A program made the translations under genes and the position numbers. Shown one piece after another: positions 9,179 through 63,961 of a stretch of 64,000 nucleotides of DNA. Below the pieces are notes generated by a model, which saw only the letters and a list, made by a program, of their open reading frames with translations, did no database searches and was not told the DNA's origin. The number at the start of each line of letters is the position of its first letter. The first letter of the stretch is position 1. This DNA comes from Escherichia phage RB43. Location: the sequence record NC_007023.1, one strand, 5' to 3'.

Positions 9179-11434
9179 ATGAGTGAAATTAAGACAGTAA
9201 TTAAATCTTCTGGTGTAAGTCAGCCGTTCGAAAAAGAAAAACTGTTTAAAGTCCTGAATTGGGCCAGTGTTGGAAAGAATATTGATGTTAACGCATTCCT
9301 TGAAAGTGTCGTTGACCTGCTTCGTGATGGTATGACTACCAAACAGATCCAGGGCGTAGCTATCAAATATGCAGCGGATCGTATTTCCGTAAAAGAACCA
9401 GATTGGCAGTATGTAGCGGCGAACCTCGAAATGTTCGCACTTCGTAAAACCGTTTACGGGCAATTCGACCCGATTCCATTTTACGAACACATCACTAAAC
9501 TGGTTGATGCTGGGAAGTACGACAAAGAAATCTTAACCAAATGGACTAAAGCGGATATCGAATATTTCGAAGAGAATATTAAGCACGATAAAGATTTTGA
9601 ATTCTCTTACGCTGGCGTACAGCAGTTGATCGGGAAATATCTGTTGCAGGATCGCACCAACGGTGACATCTACGAAACACCGCAATATGCGTTTATGCTG
9701 ATTGCTATGTGTCTGCATCAGGACGAACCGCGAACCCTGAGCGCATTTAATCATGTTGTCGATTTCTACAACGCAATTTCGGATCGTAAGCTGTCGTTAC
9801 CTACGCCTATTATGGCTGGTGTGCGTACTCCTACGCGTCAGTTTTCCAGTTGCGTAGTGATTGAATCAGGTGATTCACTGGGTTCTCTGAATGCTGTAAC
9901 CTCTGCGATCGTGAAGTATATTTCACAACGCGCGGGTATCGGTGTTAATGCTGGACACATTCGCGCAATGGGTTCTAAAATCCGTGGTGGTGAAGCAGTA
10001 CATACAGGCGTGATCCCGTTCTGGAAACATATTCAGACAGCGGTTAAATCCTGTTCACAAGGTGGCGTTCGTGGTGGTGCTGCAACGTTGTATTATCCGA
10101 TCTGGCATTTGGAAGTTGAAAACCTGCTGGTTCTGAAAAACAACAAAGGTGTTGAGAATAACCGTATTCGTCACCTGGATTATGGCGTTCAGCTTAACGA
10201 TTTGATGTATAAGCGTTTAATCAATAACGATTACATCACACTGTTCAGCCCTGACGTTGCAAATGATCGCCTGTATGATGCTTTCTATCAAGCTGATCAG
10301 ACTGAGTTCGAAGAACTCTATACCAGTTTGGAAAAAGACCCAACGGTACGCAAGAAACGCATTAAAGCAGCAGACTTATTCCAGTTGCTTGTTCAGGAAC
10401 GCGCACAGACCGGACGCAAATATATTTTCAACAGTCATCACGTCAACCAGCAGGGCAGTTTCTCCGTTCCTGTTCGTATGTCGAACCTTTGCTGTGAAAT
10501 TGCGATCCCAACGTCACCTCTGGATGATGACGACAAGTTAGCAGGTGAAATCGGACTGTGTACGCTTATGGCTATCGTTCTCGATAACGCTGATGTAAGC
10601 GAATTCCCAGCCCTTACACGTATTGCAGTACGCGCACTGGATAACCTGTTGGATTACCAGAACTACCCTGTTGCGGCGGCTCTGAAAGCTAAACAGCGTC
10701 GTTCTCTGGGCGTTGGTATCACCAACTATGCTTCGTGGTTGGCAAGTAACTATTGCGACTACTCAGAAGCATACGCCGGAAACGTTCATGAACTGATGGA
10801 AGCGTTTCAATATAACCTGTTGGTTGCCTCTATGGAACTGGCGAAAGAACGCGGTGCATGTGGACTGTTCCATGAAACAAAATATGCACAAGGGCTGTTA
10901 CCGATCGATTGGTACTGCAAAACCGTGGATGAACTCGCGTTACCTGTGTATAATTGCGATTGGGAATGGTTGCGCGGCGAAATCAAAAAATATGGCTTGC
11001 GTAACTCAACTCTTTCCGCTTTAATGCCATGTGAGAGTAGTTCTCAAGTAAGCAACTCAACAAACGGGATTGAACCGCCTCGCGGTCCTGTGAGTGTGAA
11101 ATCTTCGAAAGAAGGTTCATTCAACCAGGTAGTACCGAACCAGAACGATCAGATTGATTTCTATGATTATCTCTGGACAATGGCAAAACGCGGTAATAAA
11201 GGTTATCTGTCTCATGTTGCTGTTATGCAGAAGTTTGTTGATCAAGCGATCTCTGCAAACACCAACTATGATCCGGCTAACTTCCCAGATGGTAAAGTGA
11301 AATCTGAAACCATCATTGATGACCTGCTTTATGCGAACTACTACGGCGTGAAAACTCTGTATTATCACAACACCCGCGACGGTGCAGGTGAAGACGAAGC
11401 AGAAGCCGATGATTGCGTAGGCTGTAAGATTTGA
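9179..11434 (+). CDS. nrdA: Ribonucleotide reductase large subunit (class Ia)
   Basis: 751 aa; ATP-cone N-terminus, active-site NLCCEI, C-terminal CxxC tail; length near T4 NrdA. Confidence 0.95.
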   Translation: MSEIKTVIKSSGVSQPFEKEKLFKVLNWASVGKNIDVNAFLESVVDLLRDGMTTKQIQGVAIKYAADRISVKEPDWQYVAANLEMFALRKTVYGQFDPIPFYEHITKLVDAGKYDKEILTKWTKADIEYFEENIKHDKDFEFSYAGVQQLIGKYLLQDRTNGDIYETPQYAFMLIAMCLHQDEPRTLSAFNHVVDFYNAISDRKLSLPTPIMAGVRTPTRQFSSCVVIESGDSLGSLNAVTSAIVKYISQRAGIGVNAGHIRAMGSKIRGGEAVHTGVIPFWKHIQTAVKSCSQGGVRGGAATLYYPIWHLEVENLLVLKNNKGVENNRIRHLDYGVQLNDLMYKRLINNDYITLFSPDVANDRLYDAFYQADQTEFEELYTSLEKDPTVRKKRIKAADLFQLLVQERAQTGRKYIFNSHHVNQQGSFSVPVRMSNLCCEIAIPTSPLDDDDKLAGEIGLCTLMAIVLDNADVSEFPALTRIAVRALDNLLDYQNYPVAAALKAKQRRSLGVGITNYASWLASNYCDYSEAYAGNVHELMEAFQYNLLVASMELAKERGACGLFHETKYAQGLLPIDWYCKTVDELALPVYNCDWEWLRGEIKKYGLRNSTLSALMPCESSSQVSNSTNGIEPPRGPVSVKSSKEGSFNQVVPNQNDQIDFYDYLWTMAKRGNKGYLSHVAVMQKFVDQAISANTNYDPANFPDGKVKSETIIDDLLYANYYGVKTLYYHNTRDGAGEDEAEADDCVGCKI

Positions 11435-18171: not shown

Positions 18172-18248
18172 GGCCCTTTAGCTCAATTGGTAGAGCGAAC
18201 CCCTCATAAGGGTGTGGTTTCCGGTTCGAGTCACGGAAGGGGCCACCA
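18172..18248 (+). tRNA. tRNA with anticodon CAU (Met or Ile2), atypical T-arm
   Basis: 7-bp acceptor stem GGCCCTT/AAGGGCC, D-arm GCTC-AATTGGTA-GAGC, anticodon loop CTCATAA, T-loop TTCGAGT, 3' CCA; T-stem needs removal of A18233 to be canonical. Confidence 0.65.
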
Positions 18249-20329: not shown

Positions 20330-20391
20330 AAGAAGCCTCTATGTGGGCGTGTCGTGCGGTGTTCCAGCCAGAAGAAAACTATTAAAATCAA

Positions 20392-20419
20392 GCCGTTGCC
20401 GAAAGGTGACGGCTTTTTT
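20392..20419 (+). terminator. Rho-independent terminator
   Basis: GCCGT...ACGGC hairpin followed by TTTTTT. Confidence 0.6.
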
Positions 20420-20440: not shown

Positions 20441-20469
20441 TTGCGTTGAATCCGGCTTTCTTGTATCTT
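20441..20469 (+). promoter_or_regulatory. Conserved promoter cassette (TTGCGT-N17-TATCTT)
   Basis: Same -35/17-nt/-10 architecture as six other copies; spacer contains CCGGCTTT. Confidence 0.5.
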
Positions 20470-20487
20470 TAACCACGTAGGCAAGAC

Positions 20488-20545
20488 AACTTAACTTTGA
20501 GGATGACATTATGAACAACTTAACTTTGAGGATGACATTATGAAA
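20488..20545 (+). repeat. 29-bp tandem duplication spanning RBS and start codon
   Basis: AACTTAACTTTGAGGATGACATTATGAAC (20488-20516) repeated at 20517-20545 with one mismatch; first copy creates a 10-codon mini-ORF whose TGA overlaps the second ATG. Confidence 0.85.
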
Positions 20546-24181: not shown

Positions 24182-25682
24182 ACTTGCATCGACTCTGAAA
24201 ACCTCAGAGAAGGAAGCAATTTTAAAACGTAATGCAAACAACCTATTGTTGAAAGAGATTTTCCGAATTACGTACACAAAACAGATTATGTTCTATGTGC
24301 GTAAGTTTCCCCAGGTGGACGGCAAACCAGGAACAACCCCGCTATCAAATGCAATCGCGGACCTGATGTCCGATTTAGCATCGCGGAAGTATACAGGTAA
24401 TGCAGCCCGCGATCGCCTGATGGATATTGTGTCATCAGTAAACGAGAACGATCGCGAAGTGTTGCGCCGTATCATTAACCGCGATCTTGAATGTGGTGCG
24501 GGTACAACTCTGCCAAACCGCGTATGGAAGAAACTTATTCCAGAACAGCCTCAATGCCTCGCTACGCCGTTTAGTGAAAAAGCCTTAAAACGTATTCGCT
24601 TCCCTGCTTACTCTCAGCTTAAAGCCGATGGTGCGCGTTGTATGTCGGATCTGTTAGAAGACCAGATTCGCAAAGCAACCCGCGCTGGAAATGAGTATAC
24701 AGGTTTGGTTGATCTGGATAAGGATTTGAAAAAGATCCGCGAATATCTGGGTTATGATGTTGTGCTGGATGGAGAATTGATTTATGTCCCTACTGAAAAA
24801 GCTGTTATCGAACCTGCAAGCGGGATTCCTTTTAGTCTTGCTGGGTTTATGGATGATGACGACGATGATATTTCTGGTCTTGTGGCAGATGTTCGACGGG
24901 AAACTACCGAGAACGAAACACTGGAAGAAGCGAAACGCGAAGAGGGCAACGGGATTGTAAACAAATCCCTGAAAGGCACTATTAGCGACGAAGAACAGCG
25001 CAACATTGTATATGTTGTCTGGGACATCATACCGTATGAAGTTTATTATGGCGATGCTCCGAGTGTTCAACCGTATTGCGATCGTTTGTCTATCCTGGAT
25101 GGTGCTCTGGCTGGTTCTGGGGTATCGTGTGTTAAGTTAATCCCTTCTCGCGTTGTGTATAACATTGCAGAAGCAAAACTGGATTACAACAACTATCGAA
25201 ATGACGGTAAAGAGGGTTCTATCCTGAAAAATACCGATTTCGTCTGGAAGGATTCACGCGTTGCGGACCAGGTTAAGTTGAAGAACAAAACCCCGATTGA
25301 ACTACGGATCATCGACGTATACGCGCATACCAAAGAACCCCATAAAGTAGGTGGTTTTGTGGTTGAAGACTTATCAGGCGAAGCCAGGACAAACACAGGT
25401 TCCGGTCTGACTGATACAGACTACCGCTATGATGAAGATGGTATTACGCGTGTGTATATCCCGTTAGAAGAACGCGGAGAACTGGATCGCGAATACATCA
25501 TGGCGAACAAAGATGACTATATCGGCGCTATCGTCGAAATGGAAGTTGACGGACTCCAGAAGTCTAAGACGCGTAAGAAGGGCGAACCTGAATACAGTTT
25601 CTTCTTACCAATCATCAAGAAGATTCGACGCGACAAGACCGAACCGGATGACATTCACGTTATCTTTGCAGATTTGTTTTAA
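24159..25682 (+). CDS. 30: ATP-dependent DNA ligase gp30
   Basis: MILSILNELAS...KADGARC (adenylation KxDG)...collinear with T4 DNA ligase; 507 aa. Confidence 0.92.
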   Translation: MILSILNELASTLKTSEKEAILKRNANNLLLKEIFRITYTKQIMFYVRKFPQVDGKPGTTPLSNAIADLMSDLASRKYTGNAARDRLMDIVSSVNENDREVLRRIINRDLECGAGTTLPNRVWKKLIPEQPQCLATPFSEKALKRIRFPAYSQLKADGARCMSDLLEDQIRKATRAGNEYTGLVDLDKDLKKIREYLGYDVVLDGELIYVPTEKAVIEPASGIPFSLAGFMDDDDDDISGLVADVRRETTENETLEEAKREEGNGIVNKSLKGTISDEEQRNIVYVVWDIIPYEVYYGDAPSVQPYCDRLSILDGALAGSGVSCVKLIPSRVVYNIAEAKLDYNNYRNDGKEGSILKNTDFVWKDSRVADQVKLKNKTPIELRIIDVYAHTKEPHKVGGFVVEDLSGEARTNTGSGLTDTDYRYDEDGITRVYIPLEERGELDREYIMANKDDYIGAIVEMEVDGLQKSKTRKKGEPEYSFFLPIIKKIRRDKTEPDDIHVIFADLF

Positions 25683-25708
25683 ATAGCACTTTTTGTTAAA
25701 GAAGCCCC

Positions 25709-25737
25709 TTGCGTAAGTGAGGGGCTTTTGTTATTGT
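25709..25737 (+). promoter_or_regulatory. Conserved promoter cassette (TTGCGT-N17-TATTGT) embedded in terminator hairpin
   Basis: CCCCTTGCGTAAGTGAGGGGCTTTTGTTATTGT followed by leader CATCGAAACGAAACAGACAAAAGGAAC. Confidence 0.55.
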
Positions 25738-25774
25738 ACACACATCGAAACGAAACAGACAAAAGGAACATCCC

Positions 25775-26044
25775 ATGAACATCAATAAAGAACTCGAAGG
25801 CAAAGTAATCAACCTGGCAGACCGTGCGCGGTTTGAAAAGCTGGCTAATGGTGGTGAATCTCTGGGTGATGCAGTAGCATTATTCGAAAGACTTCGTGTT
25901 AAACGTGTTGTAGATGGCTGGGTTATCGCTCTCCCTGTTGCAGACGAAGACAAAGCGGTTTACGATCCTGTTGCCGATTCATGGGATATTGAAATCTGTC
26001 TGGTTAATATTGAAGTAGAACTTTGCTTCGAGGAAGAAAAATAA
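25775..26044 (+). CDS. hypothetical acidic protein (89 aa)
   Basis: ORF downstream of conserved promoter/leader. Confidence 0.55.
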   Translation: MNINKELEGKVINLADRARFEKLANGGESLGDAVALFERLRVKRVVDGWVIALPVADEDKAVYDPVADSWDIEICLVNIEVELCFEEEK

Positions 26045-26057
26045 TTAATTAAACCAC

Positions 26058-26086
26058 TTGCACATCGCGAGGGGTTTTGATACATT
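26058..26086 (+). promoter_or_regulatory. Conserved promoter cassette (TTGCAC-N17-TACATT)
   Basis: TTGCACATCGCGAGGGGTTTTGATACATT followed by leader ATATCGAAACGAAAGGAG. Confidence 0.55.
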
Positions 26087-26115
26087 ACCCATATCGAAAC
26101 GAAAGGAGAAACATC

Positions 26116-26295
26116 ATGAAAGTTATGCACACTGCGAACCAACTTCAAAACGGCAACTACGCGATCCACGATGCTATCGGTGCGCTGGTTGGGGTTTATC
26201 TTCCTGGTAGCAAATACCTTGAAGTTAGTGGGAATACCTTTACTGATGTTGAAAACATCGAAGCAGCAATGGAAATCATTGGTGAACTGAAATGA
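26116..26295 (+). CDS. hypothetical protein (59 aa)
   Basis: ATG 26116 with AAAGGAG RBS. Confidence 0.55.
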   Translation: MKVMHTANQLQNGNYAIHDAIGALVGVYLPGSKYLEVSGNTFTDVENIEAAMEIIGELK

Positions 26296-26483
26296 GCAAG
26301 AAACTCGAAACATGGGAAACCATCAGCGAAGATCCGAATCTTCGTTGGTGTTGTGCGAAAACTGGTTTTGATGCTGCATGGGGTGCTACTCCAGAACAGG
26401 CGCGAGAAAACTGGGAACATCAGCAAATGTTCTTTGCGCATAAAACCCCATTCAATTATGACGGGAGTCACATAGCAGCATGA
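26292..26483 (+). CDS. hypothetical protein (63 aa)
   Basis: ORF with ATGA overlap. Confidence 0.45.
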   Translation: MSKKLETWETISEDPNLRWCCAKTGFDAAWGATPEQARENWEHQQMFFAHKTPFNYDGSHIAA

Positions 26484-26788
26484 AAGAGCTAAATCTATCA
26501 AAAGAAGAAGTTGAAAAGCGGATTGCCGAAGGACTTGAAGTGATCAAGTCTATCGACTGGGGAAAAGTGATTGATTCAATGCCTGATATCCCTGATACGA
26601 TTTGCCTTAATTGTGGGCGATCCGTAATGGTTGGAAAGTGCTGTGATAATCAGAATATCGTTATCATGGAAAGGAAAGAAGTTTCACCGGAAGTGTGGGA
26701 TCAGATTCAAGAAATCATCAAAAACCCACCAAAACCGACGAAACGTTTACGCGAACTTATGAGCAGGACACCACGTTATGAAAAATGA
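26480..26788 (+). CDS. hypothetical protein with CxxC...CC cysteine cluster (102 aa)
   Basis: ORF; ICLNCGRSVMVGKCCDN. Confidence 0.45.
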   Translation: MKELNLSKEEVEKRIAEGLEVIKSIDWGKVIDSMPDIPDTICLNCGRSVMVGKCCDNQNIVIMERKEVSPEVWDQIQEIIKNPPKPTKRLRELMSRTPRYEK

Positions 26789-27155
26789 ACCAAGCAAAAC
26801 TGTGCGCCTTATCCGTTGGGAAGGTAACGAACTCCGTTATGAAGACGGCGATCGTGAATTCGTTCATGAAATGCTGGCGCACAATCTGGGATTGAAAAAC
26901 GCTAACCTGGTGCAGATGCAGCAGACAGCAGATCCCGACACATGGCAATGTGTTATTGTCGAACTGAACCCTAACAAGGAATACACAGAAGATGAACTCT
27001 TTGTGCTTGTTCAGGACGTTCCAGCGCGTCAGAAATGCTTTATGATCGACATGCCACGGGAAAACTATGAGAACATCAAGAAAGCCCGTCAGAAGCCCAT
27101 ACACAACGTATTTGATTTGTTTATGGGCTATCATGAGGAACCGGAAACGGCCTAA
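26778..27155 (+). CDS. hypothetical protein (125 aa)
   Basis: ORF converging on gp27. Confidence 0.45.
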   Translation: MKNEPSKTVRLIRWEGNELRYEDGDREFVHEMLAHNLGLKNANLVQMQQTADPDTWQCVIVELNPNKEYTEDELFVLVQDVPARQKCFMIDMPRENYENIKKARQKPIHNVFDLFMGYHEEPETA

Positions 27156-34308: not shown

Positions 34309-34310
34309 CA

Positions 34311-34333
34311 AAAAGCCCCTTTCGGGGCTTTTC
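34311..34333. terminator. Bidirectional terminator at strand switch
   Basis: AAAAAGCCCCTTTCGGGGCTTTT flanked by A-run and T-run between convergent genes. Confidence 0.7.
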
Positions 34334-35072: not shown

Positions 35073-35281
35073 GCTAATTCCTTCTCGATTGCTTCGATGA
35101 TGTGGAGAACATAACCATTCAATCTTTCGGCTTGTTCAGCGGCTTCGATCATACCGTAACGAGGAACTTCTAAAACGTCGAAACCTTCGATCGGGTTGCT
35201 TTCGATATCAACGATGATATAGCTTTCACCGATCACAGCACCTTTTCTCCAGTCTTTTACGAATTTCATTTTAGCGTTCAT
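35069..35281 (-). CDS. hypothetical acidic protein (70 aa)
   Basis: ORF downstream of conserved promoter cassette. Confidence 0.5.
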   Translation of the reverse strand: MNAKMKFVKDWRKGAVIGESYIIVDIESNPIEGFDVLEVPRYGMIEAAEQAERLNGYVLHIIEAIEKELA

Positions 35282-35319
35282 TTTCTCGTTCCTTTTGTCT
35301 GTTCCGTTTCAACACCCCT

Positions 35320-35348
35320 AATATACAAAAACCCCTCGCGATATGCAA
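35320..35348 (-). promoter_or_regulatory. Conserved promoter cassette (TTGCAT-N17-TATATT)
   Basis: Minus-strand CCCCCTTGCATATCGCGAGGGGTTTTTGTATATT then leader GTTGAAACGGAACAGACAAAAGGAAC. Confidence 0.55.
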
Positions 35349-35360
35349 GGGGGTTTTCGA

Positions 35361-35753
35361 TTAATTAAACTTATTGTACAGCATGAAGTTTACACCGATT
35401 GAACTTAGGGAGGTACAAGCTCGTTCCAGGTCGTCCGCTTCAATTTCGATAACGAATTTCGTTCGTATTAAAGCTGGCGCGACTTCTTCGACAGAAGGTG
35501 TAGTGACTTCTACGACAGGTTTATATACGTTCTTATCATGATCAGGAACATCATCGAGATACTTCAACATTTGATTGATGTATCGTTTATCTGAGTATAC
35601 AAACCGCTTCGCATTCGTCAGAAGAGAACGCATTTTAGAGCGGGTTGTAACTTTTGTACTTTCTTTGTATCCGCTACTTTCGGTGTTAAGAAAGTTTGGA
35701 TTGCTATCCAGCATAATGATAGACGCTAGATTGTTTTTGTGGAAGTATCCCAC
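35361..35753 (-). CDS. hypothetical protein (130 aa)
   Basis: ORF. Confidence 0.5.
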   Translation of the reverse strand: MGYFHKNNLASIIMLDSNPNFLNTESSGYKESTKVTTRSKMRSLLTNAKRFVYSDKRYINQMLKYLDDVPDHDKNVYKPVVEVTTPSVEEVAPALIRTKFVIEIEADDLERACTSLSSIGVNFMLYNKFN

Positions 35754-36444: not shown

Positions 36445-36912
36445 TTATCCGTCATAACCGCCACCGCACTTAACCTCACCTTCAATGAACAGTTCGCGGT
36501 TGTCTCTCAAAAGATTGTATTTCTTTTCGAGTTCCGGCCCGAATGCGTCAGCGTCTTCATAATAGCTATAATTATAACAACCGCATTCATCATCCCATTC
36601 AGGTTCATCACCGCGTTCGTTGAAGTGTACGACTTTGAGATCGTCAACTCCAGACTCTTTCATTTTATCCCAGATATACCGGATGTCAACGCTATGGTAA
36701 CTGAATGCTTCAAGGGTGATGTTATCACCATCGATTTGAGGGATACCCCATTTAGGACGTTGGTCATCGGTGATGATATCAAGCAAAGATTCTACGTTTT
36801 CGTGTCCGTAAATCTTCGCGACCTCTTCCTCTTTACCAGGACGAACAAGCCCGATCCCGATAATAAAGCTACTGCTTGAACTGTTACTTACAAAACCAGA
36901 ACGGATCTTCAT
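36445..36912 (-). CDS. Acidic protein, paralog A of MKIRSGFVSNSSSSSF family (155 aa)
   Basis: First 16 residues identical to ORF 40362-40844; Glu/Asp/Tyr/Cys-rich remainder. Confidence 0.6.
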   Translation of the reverse strand: MKIRSGFVSNSSSSSFIIGIGLVRPGKEEEVAKIYGHENVESLLDIITDDQRPKWGIPQIDGDNITLEAFSYHSVDIRYIWDKMKESGVDDLKVVHFNERGDEPEWDDECGCYNYSYYEDADAFGPELEKKYNLLRDNRELFIEGEVKCGGGYDG

Positions 36913-37100
36913 CGTCTTGCCTCATATTTCGCGTTCTCCGCGATTTTTTCTTGATAGATGTTATATGACATTACCAGAGGCGCAATCGCCACGATAAGCC
37001 CTATAAAGCACACAGAGAACTCACGTTTATTGAAAGCCAGGAACGCAATTGCGCTCCCGACTACAAACACACCTAATGCCAGTAAGAAGAATAGCGTCAT
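36909..37100 (-). CDS. small membrane protein (63 aa)
   Basis: Two hydrophobic helices. Confidence 0.45.
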   Translation of the reverse strand: MTLFFLLALGVFVVGSAIAFLAFNKREFSVCFIGLIVAIAPLVMSYNIYQEKIAENAKYEARR

Positions 37101-37714: not shown

Positions 37715-37754
37715 ATTAAATTCCTCAATATGCCCCCTTTCGGGGGCTATTTCA

Positions 37755-40361: not shown

Positions 40362-40844
40362 TTACGGAAAGATGTTTCCATGTTCCAGTTGGGTTCCAAT
40401 CGGGCCGCACTCGTCAGAGTACGTAAACTCGTAGATAAACACGCCGTTTTGATTCCCGTACTTCGTGTTGTATTCTTCATACAGCCACATCTTGATCAGA
40501 GCGTCTTTCTCTTCGGTTTCTAAATCGTACCAATCCCGACCATCATATGCAAGCGCAATTTGCGGATTTGAACGATAACGGGTTTCGGCGCTGTCTTCGG
40601 TTTCCCAATCATAACGCTTATCATCATAATACGATTCAAAGCTATTACCCATGTGACCGCCTAAGTCACGGTGAACGTGTTGAACAACTTCTTCGGATGT
40701 CAGCGGAGGATTATAATAACCGCAATTGGGAGAACAATCACCCATCATTTCGCGAAGGTTGTCGATATCAATCGGATCTTTCGGGAACCGGACGATAAAA
40801 CTACTTGATGAACTATTGCTCACAAAACCAGAACGAATTTTCAT
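40362..40844 (-). CDS. Acidic protein, paralog B of MKIRSGFVSNSSSSSF family (160 aa)
   Basis: Identical 16-aa N-terminus to ORF 36445-36912; acidic, Tyr/Cys-rich. Confidence 0.6.
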   Translation of the reverse strand: MKIRSGFVSNSSSSSFIVRFPKDPIDIDNLREMMGDCSPNCGYYNPPLTSEEVVQHVHRDLGGHMGNSFESYYDDKRYDWETEDSAETRYRSNPQIALAYDGRDWYDLETEEKDALIKMWLYEEYNTKYGNQNGVFIYEFTYSDECGPIGTQLEHGNIFP

Positions 40845-41086
40845 TTTAACGCCTCGAATTTGATTTCTTTCAGTGATTGTGTGTGATTATAACAAACCAC
40901 TCCGCGATGTGTTTTCTTTCCGGTAAATCCGTCGAATATGGTGACATAATAATGATAGCAACAATCATCAAGAGGATTGTTTCTGATATAGTCTAACACA
41001 ACGTCCAACGATACGGTAGAGCATACGCAATCAGATTCATTGTCACGACCATCATAGAAATCTTTTTCAATACTATAAATTTTCAC
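40841..41086 (-). CDS. hypothetical Cys-rich protein (81 aa)
   Basis: ORF. Confidence 0.45.
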   Translation of the reverse strand: MKIYSIEKDFYDGRDNESDCVCSTVSLDVVLDYIRNNPLDDCCYHYYVTIFDGFTGKKTHRGVVCYNHTQSLKEIKFEALK

Positions 41087-41544: not shown

Positions 41545-41585
41545 AATAAAACCCTCACGAAAAGCCCCTTTCGGGGCTTGATTAA

Positions 41586-41873
41586 TCAGTGTCCGAAGAT
41601 GTGTTTAACAGACTCAGCGAAAGCGTAAAACACCGGATTGTTTTCTTTTAGCATCGCTTCTGATTTCAGAAGATACTCGCTTTTGAACTTAGCACCGAAC
41701 AGGCAGTAAGAAAACGATTTGTCCCAGTAAAAGCAGTTGTAACCACCATCAACAAATCTCACTTCAACCAACAGATAACCCACATCTTCCGGTTTGGTAT
41801 TCGAATAATCTTTCAGAAGATTCGCGCTTACTACTTCGTATGCTTTGCCAGCAACCAAATCGTTATAAGTCAT
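41586..41873 (-). CDS. hypothetical protein (95 aa)
   Basis: ORF following hairpin 41558-41577. Confidence 0.5.
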   Translation of the reverse strand: MTYNDLVAGKAYEVVSANLLKDYSNTKPEDVGYLLVEVRFVDGGYNCFYWDKSFSYCLFGAKFKSEYLLKSEAMLKENNPVFYAFAESVKHIFGH

Positions 41874-41887
41874 GATGTGGTTCCTTT

Positions 41888-42358
41888 TCAGTTTCGTTTC
41901 GATAAAGTTAAGGTATCACTGTTCTTACGAAGATGCAAACACTTTTTTGAAGAATTTGTTTCCGGTCTTTCTTTGTATGGGCGCATGGTCAACCGCTTAC
42001 CGTCCAATACTGTTGGTTTTCCATCCAGTTCAATCAGGATAAAGTTGCCTTTGCGATACTTCAACACGCCCTGGCTTGCCGACCATTCATCGTTATCCCA
42101 GTGGTTGTAATGCCATTCAACAACGGTATCGATTGGTATTTCTGGTTGATTTCTCATATTTGCTTTCCTTCGTTCTGATGCTTCTTTCAATTGTCGTATT
42201 TGTGGTATCAACTGTTGTGGTGGAACAGTATCTTCCCGTTTCAATGCCTTTCGAACTTGATCAACAAACCATTCGTATTTCGGACGGCGGTTAAGTTCTT
42301 CCCTTAGTCGGGCATTCTCTTGTTCGGCAATGCTTGCGCGTTTTCTGTAATCGGTCAT
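41888..42358 (-). CDS. hypothetical protein with N-terminal coiled coil (156 aa)
   Basis: ORF overlapping methyltransferase stop by 4 nt (likely co-translated). Confidence 0.5.
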   Translation of the reverse strand: MTDYRKRASIAEQENARLREELNRRPKYEWFVDQVRKALKREDTVPPQQLIPQIRQLKEASERRKANMRNQPEIPIDTVVEWHYNHWDNDEWSASQGVLKYRKGNFILIELDGKPTVLDGKRLTMRPYKERPETNSSKKCLHLRKNSDTLTLSKRN

Positions 42359-43992: not shown

Positions 43993-44012
43993 CAAAAAAG
44001 CCCCGAAAGGGG
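43985..44012. terminator. Bidirectional terminator
   Basis: AAAAAAGCCCCGAAAGGGGCTTTTC. Confidence 0.7.
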
Positions 44013-44019
44013 CTTTTCT

Positions 44020-47171: not shown

Positions 47172-47199
47172 GATTATCTCCTTTCGTTTCAGTACCCCT

Positions 47200-47228
47200 A
47201 ATATAACAAAAGCCCTACACGAATGCAA
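47200..47228 (-). promoter_or_regulatory. Conserved promoter cassette (TTGCAT-N17-TATATT)
   Basis: Minus-strand GCCCTTGCATTCGTGTAGGGCTTTTGTTATATT then leader ACTGAAACGAAAGGAG. Confidence 0.55.
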
Positions 47229-47333
47229 GGGCTTTTTCAACTTATCGACAGAAAGGACAACTAAAAGAGTCGCCGCTTCCACCATGTTTACGACACGCCG
47301 ATTTCTCGATCGGTGTCATTGTTAAAATTTTCA

Positions 47334-53427: not shown

Positions 53428-53829
53428 TTATTCCCCTAATACATATTCAAAACGATGTTCCAGCGCATCATTAACGCTTTCGTAAACTCCCCCAATACGT
53501 GTAGCCTTACGAATGCCGGACTTGACAATATTCATGATCTCGACGTTACTACCCCAAACATTCAGGTTGAAATACAATTCGCAATCGATCGGATGGTCGT
53601 TTGTGTCGTAATACATGTCACAACCTTCGCAAACAAACAGTGTACGCTTTTCGTCGCCATACTGGAAGTGAATGTTAAACGCAGACATACTATCTTTATC
53701 AACAGTAATGTCAATGATGCGAACCTTTGGGTTGCTTTTCAGTTCGGTAAGAACACTTTGGATAACATGCAGAGTGTTCAGCTTGACAATCCCTACTCTG
53801 CCTACAATGACTCGATGTGATGTACTCAT
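53428..53829 (-). CDS. hypothetical protein (133 aa)
   Basis: ORF downstream of conserved promoter. Confidence 0.5.
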   Translation of the reverse strand: MSTSHRVIVGRVGIVKLNTLHVIQSVLTELKSNPKVRIIDITVDKDSMSAFNIHFQYGDEKRTLFVCEGCDMYYDTNDHPIDCELYFNLNVWGSNVEIMNIVKSGIRKATRIGGVYESVNDALEHRFEYVLGE

Positions 53830-53857
53830 AATTTAATCCTCAATGGTTGATGCACAC

Positions 53858-53886
53858 ATAATAAAAAAGCCCCTGCAAAAATGCAA
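53858..53886 (-). promoter_or_regulatory. Conserved promoter cassette (TTGCAT-N17-TATTAT)
   Basis: Minus-strand GCCCTTGCATTTTTGCAGGGGCTTTTTTATTAT. Confidence 0.55.
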
Positions 53887-53896
53887 GGGCTTTTGA

Positions 53897-54532
53897 TCAA
53901 ATAATTTGCTTTTCTTCTAACAGTTTCGCGGTATGGTTAACCATGCGAGCATATTCACGGGCTTCTTTCTTTCCATACTTAAAGCCAGCGTTATAACTCG
54001 CGAGCGCCTTTTTCAAGTCGCCTTTGTGGTAATCAAGCCAGTATTCCAGTTCATGAATAGCGTACTTAGAACCGCCCCGAAGGGTTTCAAGCGTTTTGAT
54101 TACTACGCGTTTGGAATATGATTTATCCATCCGTGCTAAAGCACTATTTGCGGTTACTTGCCAGCACCCGTAAGCGTGATGACCTTTCTTACCCTTTCCG
54201 GTGTTCTCACATGCGCGAGACTCGATCCAGGCAATAGCCGCTAAATGATATCCCAAACGTTTCGATTGTTCCGTTTCAACAGGTTTTGCAGTTTTGAGAT
54301 CATACTCGTTTCCGATCCTGAAAGCATACTCCAAAACCTTTTTCTGCTTTGGTGTAATTTCGTCCAGTTCCTTCACATATGATGGTGCTTTCTTGATCAC
54401 TGTTGCTTGTTGAAGCGGTAATGTTGACTGATAAGCCGGAAGTTTTTCGATGAATTCCCCAAGCGGATCTGTCTTTGCGTGACCAGAAAAAGAGCATAAG
54501 AAAATGCTGGTCGCTAAAATAATTTTCTTCAT
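53897..54532 (-). CDS. Secreted lytic transglycosylase (SLT domain; T4 Vs.1-like)
   Basis: Signal peptide MKKIILATSIFLCSFSGHA; SLT motifs AIAWIESRA and YGCWQVT. Confidence 0.65.
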   Translation of the reverse strand: MKKIILATSIFLCSFSGHAKTDPLGEFIEKLPAYQSTLPLQQATVIKKAPSYVKELDEITPKQKKVLEYAFRIGNEYDLKTAKPVETEQSKRLGYHLAAIAWIESRACENTGKGKKGHHAYGCWQVTANSALARMDKSYSKRVVIKTLETLRGGSKYAIHELEYWLDYHKGDLKKALASYNAGFKYGKKEAREYARMVNHTAKLLEEKQII

Positions 54533-57431: not shown

Positions 57432-57827
57432 TTATGCAAGTTCAATATGCGGTGCGTCGATGAATTTTGTTTCGATCGGAAGATTAGGATCATTCTTCCA
57501 GTTGATACCGAAACGCAGTTTCACACCGAGTTCATCACCAGCTTTTTTCATTGCATTCAGAACAGGCAACCACACTTTCGGGTTTTTCTGCCAACCTTCC
57601 GGCAGTTTGCTAGGATACAGATCCACAGCATCGCCTGTAATGTGTTTTGAATTCATGGTTTGTGACGCGCCAGTGCGAACGTATTCGCGTTGCTGTTCGA
57701 CGGTACGCAATCCTTCACGTACACCGAAATCTTCTGGGGATAGCTCCAGAGCGCGTTGTACAACCTTAACCAGTTCAGGTTTAACACCTTTCAGGTTATT
57801 GATACTTTTTTTGGCTAATTTAAACAT
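57432..57827 (-). CDS. Endolysin, peptidase M15 family (L-alanyl-D-glutamate peptidase-like)
   Basis: 131 aa; zinc-binding pattern SKHITGDAVDL ... DAPHIE typical of M15/VanY-like phage endolysins. Confidence 0.6.
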   Translation of the reverse strand: MFKLAKKSINNLKGVKPELVKVVQRALELSPEDFGVREGLRTVEQQREYVRTGASQTMNSKHITGDAVDLYPSKLPEGWQKNPKVWLPVLNAMKKAGDELGVKLRFGINWKNDPNLPIETKFIDAPHIELA

Positions 57828-63060: not shown

Positions 63061-63339
63061 TTATGCCATTTTCTTAGCGAGTTTCCAGGCGGCTTTGAAC
63101 GCCGGAACATCGTCAATTTCAATCCAGAAACCAGAACCGAAACCATCATTGTAGCAAGGGCAACCGTCGCAGTAGTTTTCCCAGGTCATCACTTCGCCAC
63201 CAACAGAAGCACCAGTTTCCATCGCACGTAACGCATCTTCAACTTTTTCCAGTTTTTCCGCGTTGTCGTCATAAATGATGAAGTACCATTTGCCGTTGTA
63301 TTCGTTACCCAGTTTGATTGCTTCGCGAACAAGTTTCAT
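63061..63339 (-). CDS. hypothetical Cys-containing protein (about 92 aa)
   Basis: ATG(rc) 63339 with AAAGGAA RBS downstream of conserved promoter. Confidence 0.5.
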   Translation of the reverse strand: MKLVREAIKLGNEYNGKWYFIIYDDNAEKLEKVEDALRAMETGASVGGEVMTWENYCDGCPCYNDGFGSGFWIEIDDVPAFKAAWKLAKKMA

Positions 63340-63376
63340 GATGATTTCCTTTTGTCTGTTTCGTTTCGATGTGTGT

Positions 63377-63405
63377 AATATAACAAAACCCCTCACCATA
63401 GGCAA
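63377..63405 (-). promoter_or_regulatory. Conserved promoter cassette (TTGCCT-N17-TATATT)
   Basis: Minus-strand CCCCTTGCCTATGGTGAGGGGTTTTGTTATATT then leader CACACATCGAAACGAAACAGACAAAAGGAA. Confidence 0.55.
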
Positions 63406-63430
63406 GGGGTTTCTTTAACAAAAAGTGCTA

Positions 63431-63961
63431 TTACCATCCGTTAGGGTTGCGGAAATGTGTCTGCCAGTAACGCAGTTGTTCGCGGCTCATTTGCTGGGTG
63501 TCAATTACCATGCTATGAATCATTTCTAACATAACACGGGTTTGTGCGACATCCTCCAGGCTCGCTATACGCTGTTTTAAGGCTTCGTTCTCTTTCTCCA
63601 ACTCAACCATACGGTCGTATGCTTTGATGCGCTCCAGTGGCATATCAGGGCGCTCTTTGAGGACACGGGCGCGGGACACTTCACATTCATGATTCGCTTT
63701 CCAGTGTTCAGCCTCTTTGACGGCTTTTTGTTCGTTATGACGTGACATAGAAAGGTCACTAACCAGATCCATAACAGTTTGCGGATCTACGGTTTCAAGG
63801 TAATTCCCCAGATCCGTTTCCCATCCTTTAACCTGTGTCGGACTATCACCATAAGGAACTACATACTGAAATACACGTTTATATTCTTTCCCACTGAATC
63901 CGTAATCTTGATTACCGCGAATAGAACCATTATCAGCAGCAGTCCATTTAGAACCCATCAT
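63431..63961 (-). CDS. hypothetical protein with C-terminal coiled coil (176 aa)
   Basis: ORF. Confidence 0.5.
   Translation of the reverse strand: MMGSKWTAADNGSIRGNQDYGFSGKEYKRVFQYVVPYGDSPTQVKGWETDLGNYLETVDPQTVMDLVSDLSMSRHNEQKAVKEAEHWKANHECEVSRARVLKERPDMPLERIKAYDRMVELEKENEALKQRIASLEDVAQTRVMLEMIHSMVIDTQQMSREQLRYWQTHFRNPNGW

Follow-up and report, generated by a model that had tools for sequence, protein, structure and literature searches.

Putative PeSL-type junctions in Escherichia phage RB43: intrinsic terminators interleaved with early promoters ahead of small genes

Promoter-early stem-loops (PeSLs) were named in phages RB49 and phi1 by Arbiol et al. (2010; PMC2839356), and the sections of that paper drawn on here distinguish five subclasses, in one of which the stem-loop overlaps the −35 element. 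The same sections document promoter and terminator activity of phi1 PeSLs by lacZ fusions, report that the high activity of these PeSLs in uninfected E. coli made it difficult to isolate wild-type clones, and propose PeSL-mediated modular shuffling and mini-circles. In the corresponding sections of Comeau et al. (2014; PMC4122927), PeSLs are extended to T4/PST and KVP40/nt-1. For Escherichia phage RB43, a T4-like coliphage of the genus Pseudotevenvirus, Nolan et al. (2006; PMC1524935) predicted 43 early promoters and 45 terminators and found neither a motA orthologue nor a middle-promoter consensus. Here we describe a family of 70 to 95 bp cassettes within a 64,000 nucleotide stretch of the RB43 genome (NC_007023.1), referred to as the window. 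They are probably intergenic junctions of the PeSL type, in which an intrinsic terminator is interleaved with a sigma-70 early promoter and which insulate and drive small early genes and offer homology for their exchange. The core finding is of a known kind and at predicted sites, because the PeSL concept is published and Nolan et al. listed the same sites; what is new, and of modest interest, is a leader anchored to the transcription start together with a link to the 21-base repeats of T1-like phages and to the genus Certrevirus.

Six composite cassettes, designated here by the first base of the −35 hexamer, are located at 25709 and 26058 on the plus (+) strand and at 35348, 47228, 53886 and 63405 on the minus (−) strand. 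Genes in the window run rightward to ~34.3 kb and then leftward, and all cassettes point the same way as the neighbouring genes. In each composite, CC(C)-TTGCNN is followed by a spacer of exactly 17 nt that contains GGG(G)(C)TTTT, and then by a −10 hexamer TAnnnT, as a preliminary description of this DNA had stated. That description listed seven sites, and the remaining one, at 20441, is only promoter-like. Its −35 consensus, TTGC(A/G)T, holds for four of the six copies, the others having TTGCAC and TTGCCT, and its term near-identical was too strong, as copies in the window are pairwise 63–85% alike; the exception is an inverted repeat of 98 nt with 85% identity (25682–25779 versus 63335–63432), which includes positions without obvious constraint. 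The pattern CCYTTGCNYN7RGGG matches the window 6 times versus 0.65 expected, and none of 100 shuffled sequences reached 6. A profile built from the six copies recovers the same six with E values from 1e-10 to 6e-15, a circular result, and revealed no further co-oriented site in the window better than E 0.1. Independent support for the profile comes from a search of the RB43 genome, assembled from the public record, which yielded eight additional copies elsewhere and so 14 composites in the genome, each of which points towards a Shine-Dalgarno (SD) sequence and ATG downstream. The motif therefore does recur beyond the sites first listed; its failure to do so had been named as the result that would speak against a family.

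The stop codon of the upstream gene lies ~5–25 nt before the hairpin, with A-runs (AAAAAG, TTAAAGAA) between them. The parts then follow in the order A-rich stretch, GC-rich stem-loop, TTTT(G)T, −10, leader, SD and ATG, with the SD and ATG ~29–38 nt after the −10. In two window copies the A-rich stretch is a 21-nt repeat, ATAGCACTTTTTGTTAAAGAA, which is absent from the other four composites. Stems have 9–13 bp, with predicted energies from −10.8 to −21.1 kcal/mol and z-scores of −3 to −8 relative to shuffled controls. The −35 element had been assigned to the 3′ half of the hairpin; folding places TTGCNN instead in the distal 5′ arm and the first bases of the loop, with the 3′ arm and T-run filling the 17-nt spacer. 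In four of the six composites, and in a further promoter at 41938 (−), a TG separated by one base from the −10 makes this an extended −10, which would offset a −35 with half of the consensus bases. Pairing was evaluated in 19 cassettes with an apex-anchored, N-padded alignment, a procedure biased towards structure; a MAFFT alignment was out of register, as loop lengths differ, and was discarded. In this set, 96.7% of stem cells are paired versus 74.5% in shuffles, and 8 of 11 stem pairs change on both sides, for example TTGCA/TGCAG versus TTGAC/GTCGG and CCCC/GGGG versus GGGG/CCCC. Copies with TTGAC pair with GTCGG or GTCAG, and in one Pectobacterium phage the C-run/G-run polarity is fully swapped. 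The uniformity of TTGCA is thus attributable to the TGCA(A/G) with which it has to form the stem. With Rfam gathering thresholds, only a tRNA-Met was matched, and no RNA family for the leader or hairpin.

All six composites are on the early-promoter list that Nolan et al. obtained with a hidden Markov model, with scores of 17–31; at a constant coordinate offset, the seven promoters cited individually below correspond to these six and to 41938, and four terminators predicted by TransTerm lie inside the promoters (PMC1524935). A terminator overlapping a promoter is annotated at a homologous cassette in the GenBank record of KP27, and the record of Citrobacter phage Miller has terminators at the homologues of 25709, 47228, 53886 and 63405. 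The proposal that the same sequence both terminates and initiates transcription therefore agrees with the PeSL concept, with early-promoter predictions at six sites and with terminator predictions at four, and we infer the promoter, terminator and leader activities of the RB43 cassettes on this basis. In RNA arriving from upstream, the hairpin and U-run would act as an intrinsic terminator or attenuator; at the DNA level, host sigma-70 RNA polymerase would start a new early transcript ~7 nt past the −10; each small early gene unit would in this way be insulated and driven separately. The ORFs (open reading frames) downstream encode 59–133 amino acids, belong to seven different PHROG families, are mutually unrelated and have no known function, consistent with their earlier description as unrelated small accessory genes.

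As judged from the published sections noted above, PeSLs and the RB43 set have in common an intergenic sigma-70-like early promoter preceded by AT-rich sequence and combined with a stem-loop of G/C tracts, boundaries formed by an upstream stop codon and a downstream SD and ATG, and many copies ahead of small ORFs of unknown function. PeSLs are also associated with ORF indels between close relatives, of which the RB43 set has one clear case. The features by which PeSLs are recognized are found in the window, namely promoter geometry, a G/C stem-loop overlapping the −35 and spacer, intergenic bounds and multiplicity. Within the same portions of the PeSL literature the RB43 set has never been catalogued, the single passing mention being of PeSL-like sequences near gene 43 (PMC2839356). 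There are also differences from the PeSLs as described there. In RB43, the stem runs from a C-run to a G-run around palindromic TTGCA/TGCA(A/G), whereas RB49 PeSLs run from G to C; the RB43 −35 is TTGCAT, that of the PeSLs being close to a perfect TTGACA; and only RB43 has the start-anchored GAAAC leader, in most copies, and a T1-type 21-nt repeat, in some. Lambdoid morons (Hendrix et al. 2000, as related in the sections of PMC2839356 drawn on here) likewise consist of a small accessory ORF with its own promoter and terminator. They are unlike the cassettes in their presumed insertion by illegitimate recombination, in that their regulatory sequences are not conserved linkers, and in a GC content that often departs from that of the host phage.

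Bases 25000–27000 of the window are 100% identical to RB43, 95–97% identical to Citrobacter phages Miller, CfP1, IME-CF2 and Xman, and ~83% identical to RB16 as well as to numerous phages of Klebsiella, Enterobacter and Cronobacter. The cassette that follows the ligase gene, 25709, is nevertheless ~93–100% conserved in RB16, Klebsiella phage KPN-12i and Cronobacter phage SemperBestia, which are only ~83% identical overall, with only loop bases varying and the leader 100% conserved. At the site orthologous to 26058, these three phages have the promoter with no hairpin, and RB16 and KPN-12i also have the leader; the hairpin is present in RB43 and Miller, which differ there (CCAC/CGAGGGG versus CCCC/CAAGGGG). 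As 41938 consists of a promoter and leader only, it follows that promoter, hairpin and leader are separable modules. At the 25709 site, Miller has an extra ORF of 84 amino acids (~350 bp) that is absent from RB43, with a composite cassette at its left and a terminator followed by a promoter-leader at its right, both sharing TACACACATCGAAACGAAACA. The RB43 cassette at this site is chimeric, the aligned segments overlapping by 33 nt (25737–25769). The Miller arrangement is also present in CfP1 and, from a matching alignment span, in IME-CF2 and Xman. Judged by sequence, this indel is a textbook example of what PeSL-mediated gene insertion would generate. Synteny between RB43 and Miller also breaks at 47243 and 63432. 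More generally, ~20–100 nt of homology between copies would allow the phage recombination system to insert or delete ORF cassettes at junctions, a role for which the Miller indel is the one case shown and which we infer for the remaining cassettes.

Five of the composites share a leader, as had been noticed, with the consensus (A/G)YYGAAACG(A/G)AA; a sixth copy, at 41938 (−), had been missed, and 53886 has none. In RB43, YGAAAC occurs exactly 8 nt after TAnnnT 20 times versus a background of ~6 per spacing, and 12 of the 20 are promoters, nine with and three without a hairpin. The 8 nt between the −10 and YGAAAC differ in sequence (ACACACAT, AGGGGTGT, GGTCTTGT, AACTTTAT, ACCCATAT) with the spacing constant, and the distance from YGAAAC to the ATG in these promoters ranges from 19 to 30 nt. 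Being fixed relative to the −10 and variable relative to the ATG, YGAAAC tracks the transcription start, at predicted position +2/+3, and not the SD or start codon. Leaders are ~22–32 nt in length, with 50–55% A and 6–14% U, and the minimum free energy is ~−1 to −3 kcal/mol in five of the six window copies that have the GAAAC leader and −8.2 kcal/mol at 41938. Within the window, GGAG is present only in the leaders of 26058 and 47228, the others having AAGGAA or GAGGA; outside it, leaders at RB43 record positions 100464, 177932 and 9579 also have GGAG. Most likely, the conserved sequence with which the transcript begins, (A/G)YYGAAACGAAAC, combines an initial transcribed sequence with an open, unstructured translation initiation region and is selected for strong expression. 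The leader has no match in 5,426 complete E. coli genomes or in PLSDB beyond a 21-nt chance match in a Deinococcus plasmid, and a host origin was rejected on this absence from the E. coli genomes and plasmids.

Both the leader and the 21-nt repeat extend to other phage families. The T1-like phages TLS, T1, Rtp and Rogue1 have 21-base repeats with the consensus aaATAGCACnnnTTGnTAAAA, ~76 nt upstream of start codons and oriented in the direction of transcription; 18 such intergenic repeats were reported in a 2024 paper on TLS, with their function listed as an open question (PMC11447400). For T1, units termed transcriptons have been proposed. We find 15 copies of the TAGCA...TAAA motif in T1, and 10 of them are followed at exactly 22 nt by a −10-like hexamer. 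RB43 has four copies of the same 21-nt sequence, at 25683 (+), 63431 (−) and record positions 11071 (−) and 9909 (−), of which the first three head composites (3 of 14) and those at 25683 and 63431 are each positioned 92 nt upstream of an ATG. Many T1-like copies are followed by a GC hairpin, and most by a −10. The T1-type arrangement has 22 nt from repeat to −10 and no −35, whereas in the repeat-headed RB43 composites this distance is 33 nt, one helical turn more, and a TTGCNN −35 is accommodated within the enlarged hairpin. Outside the window, at ~9909 (−) in RB43 record HE981739.1, there is a T1-type cassette with ATAGCACTTTTTGCTAAA, 22 nt, TATAGT, TATCCCAT and CAAAAC..., and no −35.

In Klebsiella phage AYM (Webervirus), a cassette consists of ATAGCACTTTTTGTTAAA, a hairpin, a −10 and the leader and extends over the first ~10 codons of a DUF5417-like ORF, after which the next cassette begins. 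This 86-nt AYM cassette matches 956 phage records, mostly 43–52 kb Drexlerviridae and RB43-like phages, and the Webervirus cassette is ~80% identical over 82 nt to the cassette at the ligase site of RB16. At AYM 355–545, the RB43-like cassette is followed by a 16-codon ORF, which opens with ~30 nt matching the first bases of the RB43 DUF5417 gene (63339) and ends within the next 21-nt repeat; from its sequence, this region resembles a scar left by deletion between two cassettes and by exchange of DNA between a phage of the T1-like and one of the T4-like group. In Klebsiella phage vB_KpnM_M1 (422–763), gp177 is annotated on the strand opposite to an ORF that is driven by a cassette, with promoter, leader, SD and ATG all clear, and is probably a mis-called gene. 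Pectobacterium phage POP18 has the 26-nt leader with 100% identity, and there it follows a hairpin, GGGGTTGAC-TTCG-GTCAGCCCC, that embeds TTGACT, and throughout Certrevirus (~24 genomes) the leader is conserved at one locus. The Certrevirus ORF behind it has no RB43 homologue detectable by tblastn, and extension of the match into the coding region of Slopekvirus was dismissed as chance similarity of ATGA(A/G)CATGAA; Certrevirus therefore shares the regulatory block and not the gene.

The early promoter A3 of phage T7 (T7 318–345) has TACGAT, 7 nt and then A(+1)TGAAACGACAG, with TGAAACGA from +2, and thus has a YGAAACGA block, at an annotated start, with the offset that it has in the cassettes of RB43, T1-like phages and Certrevirus; transcription from A1 of T7 begins with ATCGA. 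The likeness of A3 and A1 to the cassettes is confined to ~15 nt around the start site, as these T7 promoters have a consensus-like TTGAC −35, no embedded terminator and no position at small-ORF junctions. A scan of IMG/VR with a pattern that, having 14 specified bases, gives many chance matches yielded at least 126 matches, of which we interpret only the at least 43 that are followed by an SD and ATG, behind TTGACA- or TTGCAT-type promoters on contigs of many sizes. Within the literature searched, no paper was found that links the RB43 cassettes, the T1-like repeats and the Certrevirus leader, and searches on the motif strings and on transcriptomes of these genera returned nothing relevant.

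Tentatively, and with more doubt than confidence, the RB43 cassettes can be viewed as local members of a portable early-promoter junction that is exchanged horizontally across families, with the 21-nt repeat and the GAAAC block as functional recognition or escape elements. Such a junction may have as its parts the ATAGCAC...TAAA repeat of 21 nt, a spacer with a GC hairpin, a −10 of the extended type and, as initial transcribed sequence, A(+1)TCGAAAC, and may be common to T1-like Drexlerviridae and Pseudotevenvirus/Slopekvirus, with the leader only in Certrevirus. The repeat may be a contact of the UP-element kind for the C-terminal domain of the RNA polymerase alpha subunit, or a site for a shared host factor, and GAAAC may assist promoter clearance; passive homology may then be insufficient to explain the repeat and the GAAAC block. 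If this is correct, the T1-like 21-base repeats indicate promoters able to work in the absence of a −35, and modular shuffling of the PeSL type reaches beyond the T4-like phages.

Several observations weigh against the assignment of the RB43 cassettes to PeSL-type junctions. Their promoter and terminator activities rest on the phi1 experiments and on prediction programs, the −35 hexamers fit TTGACA at just three of six positions, the T-runs are interrupted and only 4–5 T long, the hairpin of 26058 has a predicted energy of no more than −10.8 kcal/mol and so is weak, and the count of stem pairs used a hairpin-anchored alignment that leans towards structure. Only one of the six window cassettes has a clean cassette-to-cassette indel relative to Miller, and the ORF indel at 63432 has only microhomology at its borders. 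Three other explanations partly overlap the PeSL interpretation and are not strictly exclusive of it. It is very unlikely that the elements are ordinary intrinsic terminators only, with an incidental likeness to promoters, similarity among copies due to convergent constraint and no role in recombination. Promoter-like hexamer pairs are indeed no commoner in the window than in shuffled sequence (40 versus 45.8 expected), the 26058 hairpin was seemingly gained or lost in situ and five of the six cassettes give no sign of cassette-to-cassette exchange with Miller, but the −10, the exact 17-nt spacing and GAAAC at +3 are kept even in copies and orthologues that have no hairpin, and the plain terminators at 34310, 41559 and 43995 have none of these features. 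Convergence also accounts poorly for 85% identity over the 98-nt inverted repeat with its apparently unconstrained positions, and for the chimeric junction relative to Miller.

The leader had been suggested to be a site for a translational repressor or RNase, which in its fuller form would make it an RNA operator through which a RegA-like repressor or a RegB-like endoribonuclease shuts off early mRNAs jointly. We consider this unlikely. GGAG in the SD region of early transcripts is the target of T4 RegB, and GGAG is present in the SD of some leaders, namely the two window and three record copies given above; the leader is 100% conserved at orthologous sites despite ~83% overall identity, RB43 has regA, according to the gene names in Nolan et al., and the Miller annotators recognized a RegB-like domain in the vs.1-like protein encoded beside 53886. 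RegA-type operators, however, act at the SD and start codon, whereas in 12 promoters YGAAAC is fixed 8 nt after the −10 and varies in its distance from the ATG, so that a repressor site is the less likely function; the long-form leaders use AAGGAA and not GGAG, Pfam gives the vs.1-like protein only an SLT domain (E≤0.01), and the block is also found in promoters of T1-like phages, of Certrevirus and of T7 (A3), phages that do not have these regulators in common. A phage-specific regulatory class had also been implied. In its fuller form, as promoters, for example of the middle mode, that depend on a phage activator or modified polymerase and have TTGC or the 21-nt repeat as the activator box, it is quite improbable. 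It would accommodate the uniform yet non-consensus −35 (TTGCAT), the inverted repeat TAGCA-N5-TG(C/T)TA within the 21-nt repeat, and the location of the T1-type repeat 22 nt from the −10, the position of a class II activator, with no −35; the TLS authors raise enhancer-binding sequences as a possibility (PMC11447400). The elements nevertheless read as host sigma-70 early promoters, TTG-17 nt-TAnnnT being sigma-70 geometry and unlike MotA-box spacing. The MotA box, (a/t)(a/t)(a/t)TGCTTtA, is located 11–13 nt upstream of the −10. A MotA-type middle promoter is excluded by spacing, TTGC being 17 nt plus a hexamer from the −10, and by the absence of motA and of a middle-promoter consensus from RB43. 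Stem pairing explains the uniform TTGCA, only 3 of the 14 RB43 composites have the 21-nt repeat, the element is common to phage families with different gene sets and, in the sections of the phi1 study cited above, PeSLs are highly active in uninfected cells. A sigma-54 reading of TAGCAC-N5-TGCTA was rejected on inspection, as it has AG instead of GG and a GG-to-GC spacing 2 bp too short.

On the PeSL-type interpretation, the RB43 annotation gains at least seven early transcription units in the window with predicted starts and, at the six composites, predicted ends of the preceding units, and the cassettes account for the insulation of small accessory genes and for their exchange. The same promoter-proximal blocks are present in T4-like, T1-like and rV5-like virulent phages of enterobacteria and absent from the E. 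coli genomes and PLSDB plasmids searched, and this sharing provides a testable hypothesis for the function of the T1-like 21-base repeats. It also suggests that conserved regulatory junctions serve as linkers for gene exchange across families, a role that regulatory junctions reportedly have in Botstein's modular theory. As compact natural parts (terminator, strong promoter, open 5′ untranslated region and SD in ~90 bp), the cassettes are possibly useful for phage engineering.

Two window copies are full cassettes. The first (25683–25774, +) lies 3′ of the DNA ligase gene (gene 30) and has the 21-nt repeat from 25683, a hairpin at 25700–25729 (−21.1 kcal/mol), −35 TTGCGT (25709–25714), TGn and −10 TATTGT (25732–25737), a predicted +1 at A25744 and the leader ATCGAAACGAAACAGACAAAAGGAAC, which precedes an 89-amino-acid ORF with its ATG at 25775; it corresponds to Pe:57694 and terminator 57704–57725 of Nolan et al. 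and is kept in RB16, KPN-12i and SemperBestia. The second (63340–63431, −) has the repeat from 63431, a hairpin at 63413–63385 (−18.7 kcal/mol), −35 TTGCCT (63405–63400), TGn and −10 TATATT (63382–63377), a predicted +1 at A63370 and the leader ATCGAAACGAAACAGACAAAAGGAA, followed by the ATG (63339) of a 92-amino-acid DUF5417 protein, and corresponds to Pe:95419 and terminator 95389–95409. The composite cassette at 26045–26115 (+) is a direct repeat of the first, 349 bp away, on the other side of ORF 25775–26044; it has a weak hairpin (26051–26077, −10.8 kcal/mol), −35 TTGCAC (26058–26063), TGn and −10 TACATT (26081–26086), a predicted +1 at A26093 and a short leader, ATCGAAACGAAAGGAGAAAC, before the ATG (26116) of a 59-amino-acid ORF (Pe:58043).

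On the minus strand, the composite at 35282–35365 has a hairpin at 35359–35326 (−18.4 kcal/mol), −35 TTGCAT (35348–35343), −10 TATATT (35325–35320), a predicted +1 at G35313 and the leader GTTGAAACGGAACAGACAAAAGGAAC, with the ATG of a 70-amino-acid ORF at 35281 (Pe:67362, terminator 67332–67352). A promoter and leader with no terminator hairpin occupy 41874–41938 (Pe:73952), with −35 TTGCAT (41938–41933), a 17-nt spacer, TGn and −10 TACCTT (41915–41910), a predicted +1 at A41903 and the leader ATCGAAACGAAACTGAAAAGGAAC, which includes ATCGAAACGAAAC; the ATG at 41873 opens a 95-amino-acid ORF. The composite at 47172–47240 (Pe:79242) has a hairpin at 47236–47208, −35 TTGCAT (47228–47223), TGn and −10 TATATT (47205–47200), a predicted +1 at A47193, the leader ACTGAAACGAAAGGAGAT and a 61-amino-acid ORF from ATG 47171. 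The 3′ arm of its hairpin (47208–47216) has one base fewer than in the RB43-GVA record (78820 region), GTAGGGC versus GTAAGGGC, and the predicted energy is −13.8 kcal/mol in the window versus −18.5 in RB43-GVA. The window differs from RB43-GVA records by small indels, with a coordinate offset that varies from 0 to 10 along its length. The composite at 53830–53898, which has no GAAAC leader, consists of a hairpin at 53894–53865 (−20.8 kcal/mol), −35 TTGCAT (53886–53881) and −10 TATTAT (53863–53858), with the ATG of a 133-amino-acid ORF at 53829 (Pe:85900, terminator 85869–85890). It is directly 3′ of the vs.1-like gene (53897–54532), whose homologue is given RegB and lysozyme domains by the Miller annotators and whose SLT transglycosylase domain, the only one found by Pfam, spans residues 96–192.

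The site at 20441 (+) falls outside the family. A plain terminator at 20390–20415 is followed, 25 nt downstream, by a separate promoter-like TTGCGT-17-TATCTT (20441–20469) that has no hairpin (−1.7 kcal/mol), no GGGG...TTTT, no leader and no match to the profile, and that is absent from the early-promoter list of Nolan et al. Further downstream, a perfect 29-bp tandem duplication (20486–20543; two copies of ACAACTTAACTTTGAGGATGACATTATGA) doubles an SD and start codon. The first ATG opens a mini-ORF of 10 codons with a TGA that overlaps the second ATG (ATTATGA), which suggests translational coupling or a recent slippage event. A second repeat family consists of plain symmetrical GC hairpins (AAAAAGCCCCTTTCGGGGCTTTT) at 34310–34332, 41559–41581 and 43995–44017, and also at 37734–37747. 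The hairpins of this family have no promoter features and, from their sequence, look like bidirectional terminators, one being located at the switch in gene orientation (~34.3 kb). A single tRNA-Met (CAT) gene is present at 18172–18248 (+), and its homologue in the Miller record is on the opposite strand. Finally, a direct repeat of 77 nt with 74% identity (36853–36929 and 40785–40861, separated by 3.9 kb and antisense to the genes) probably marks the 5′ ends of paralogous genes.

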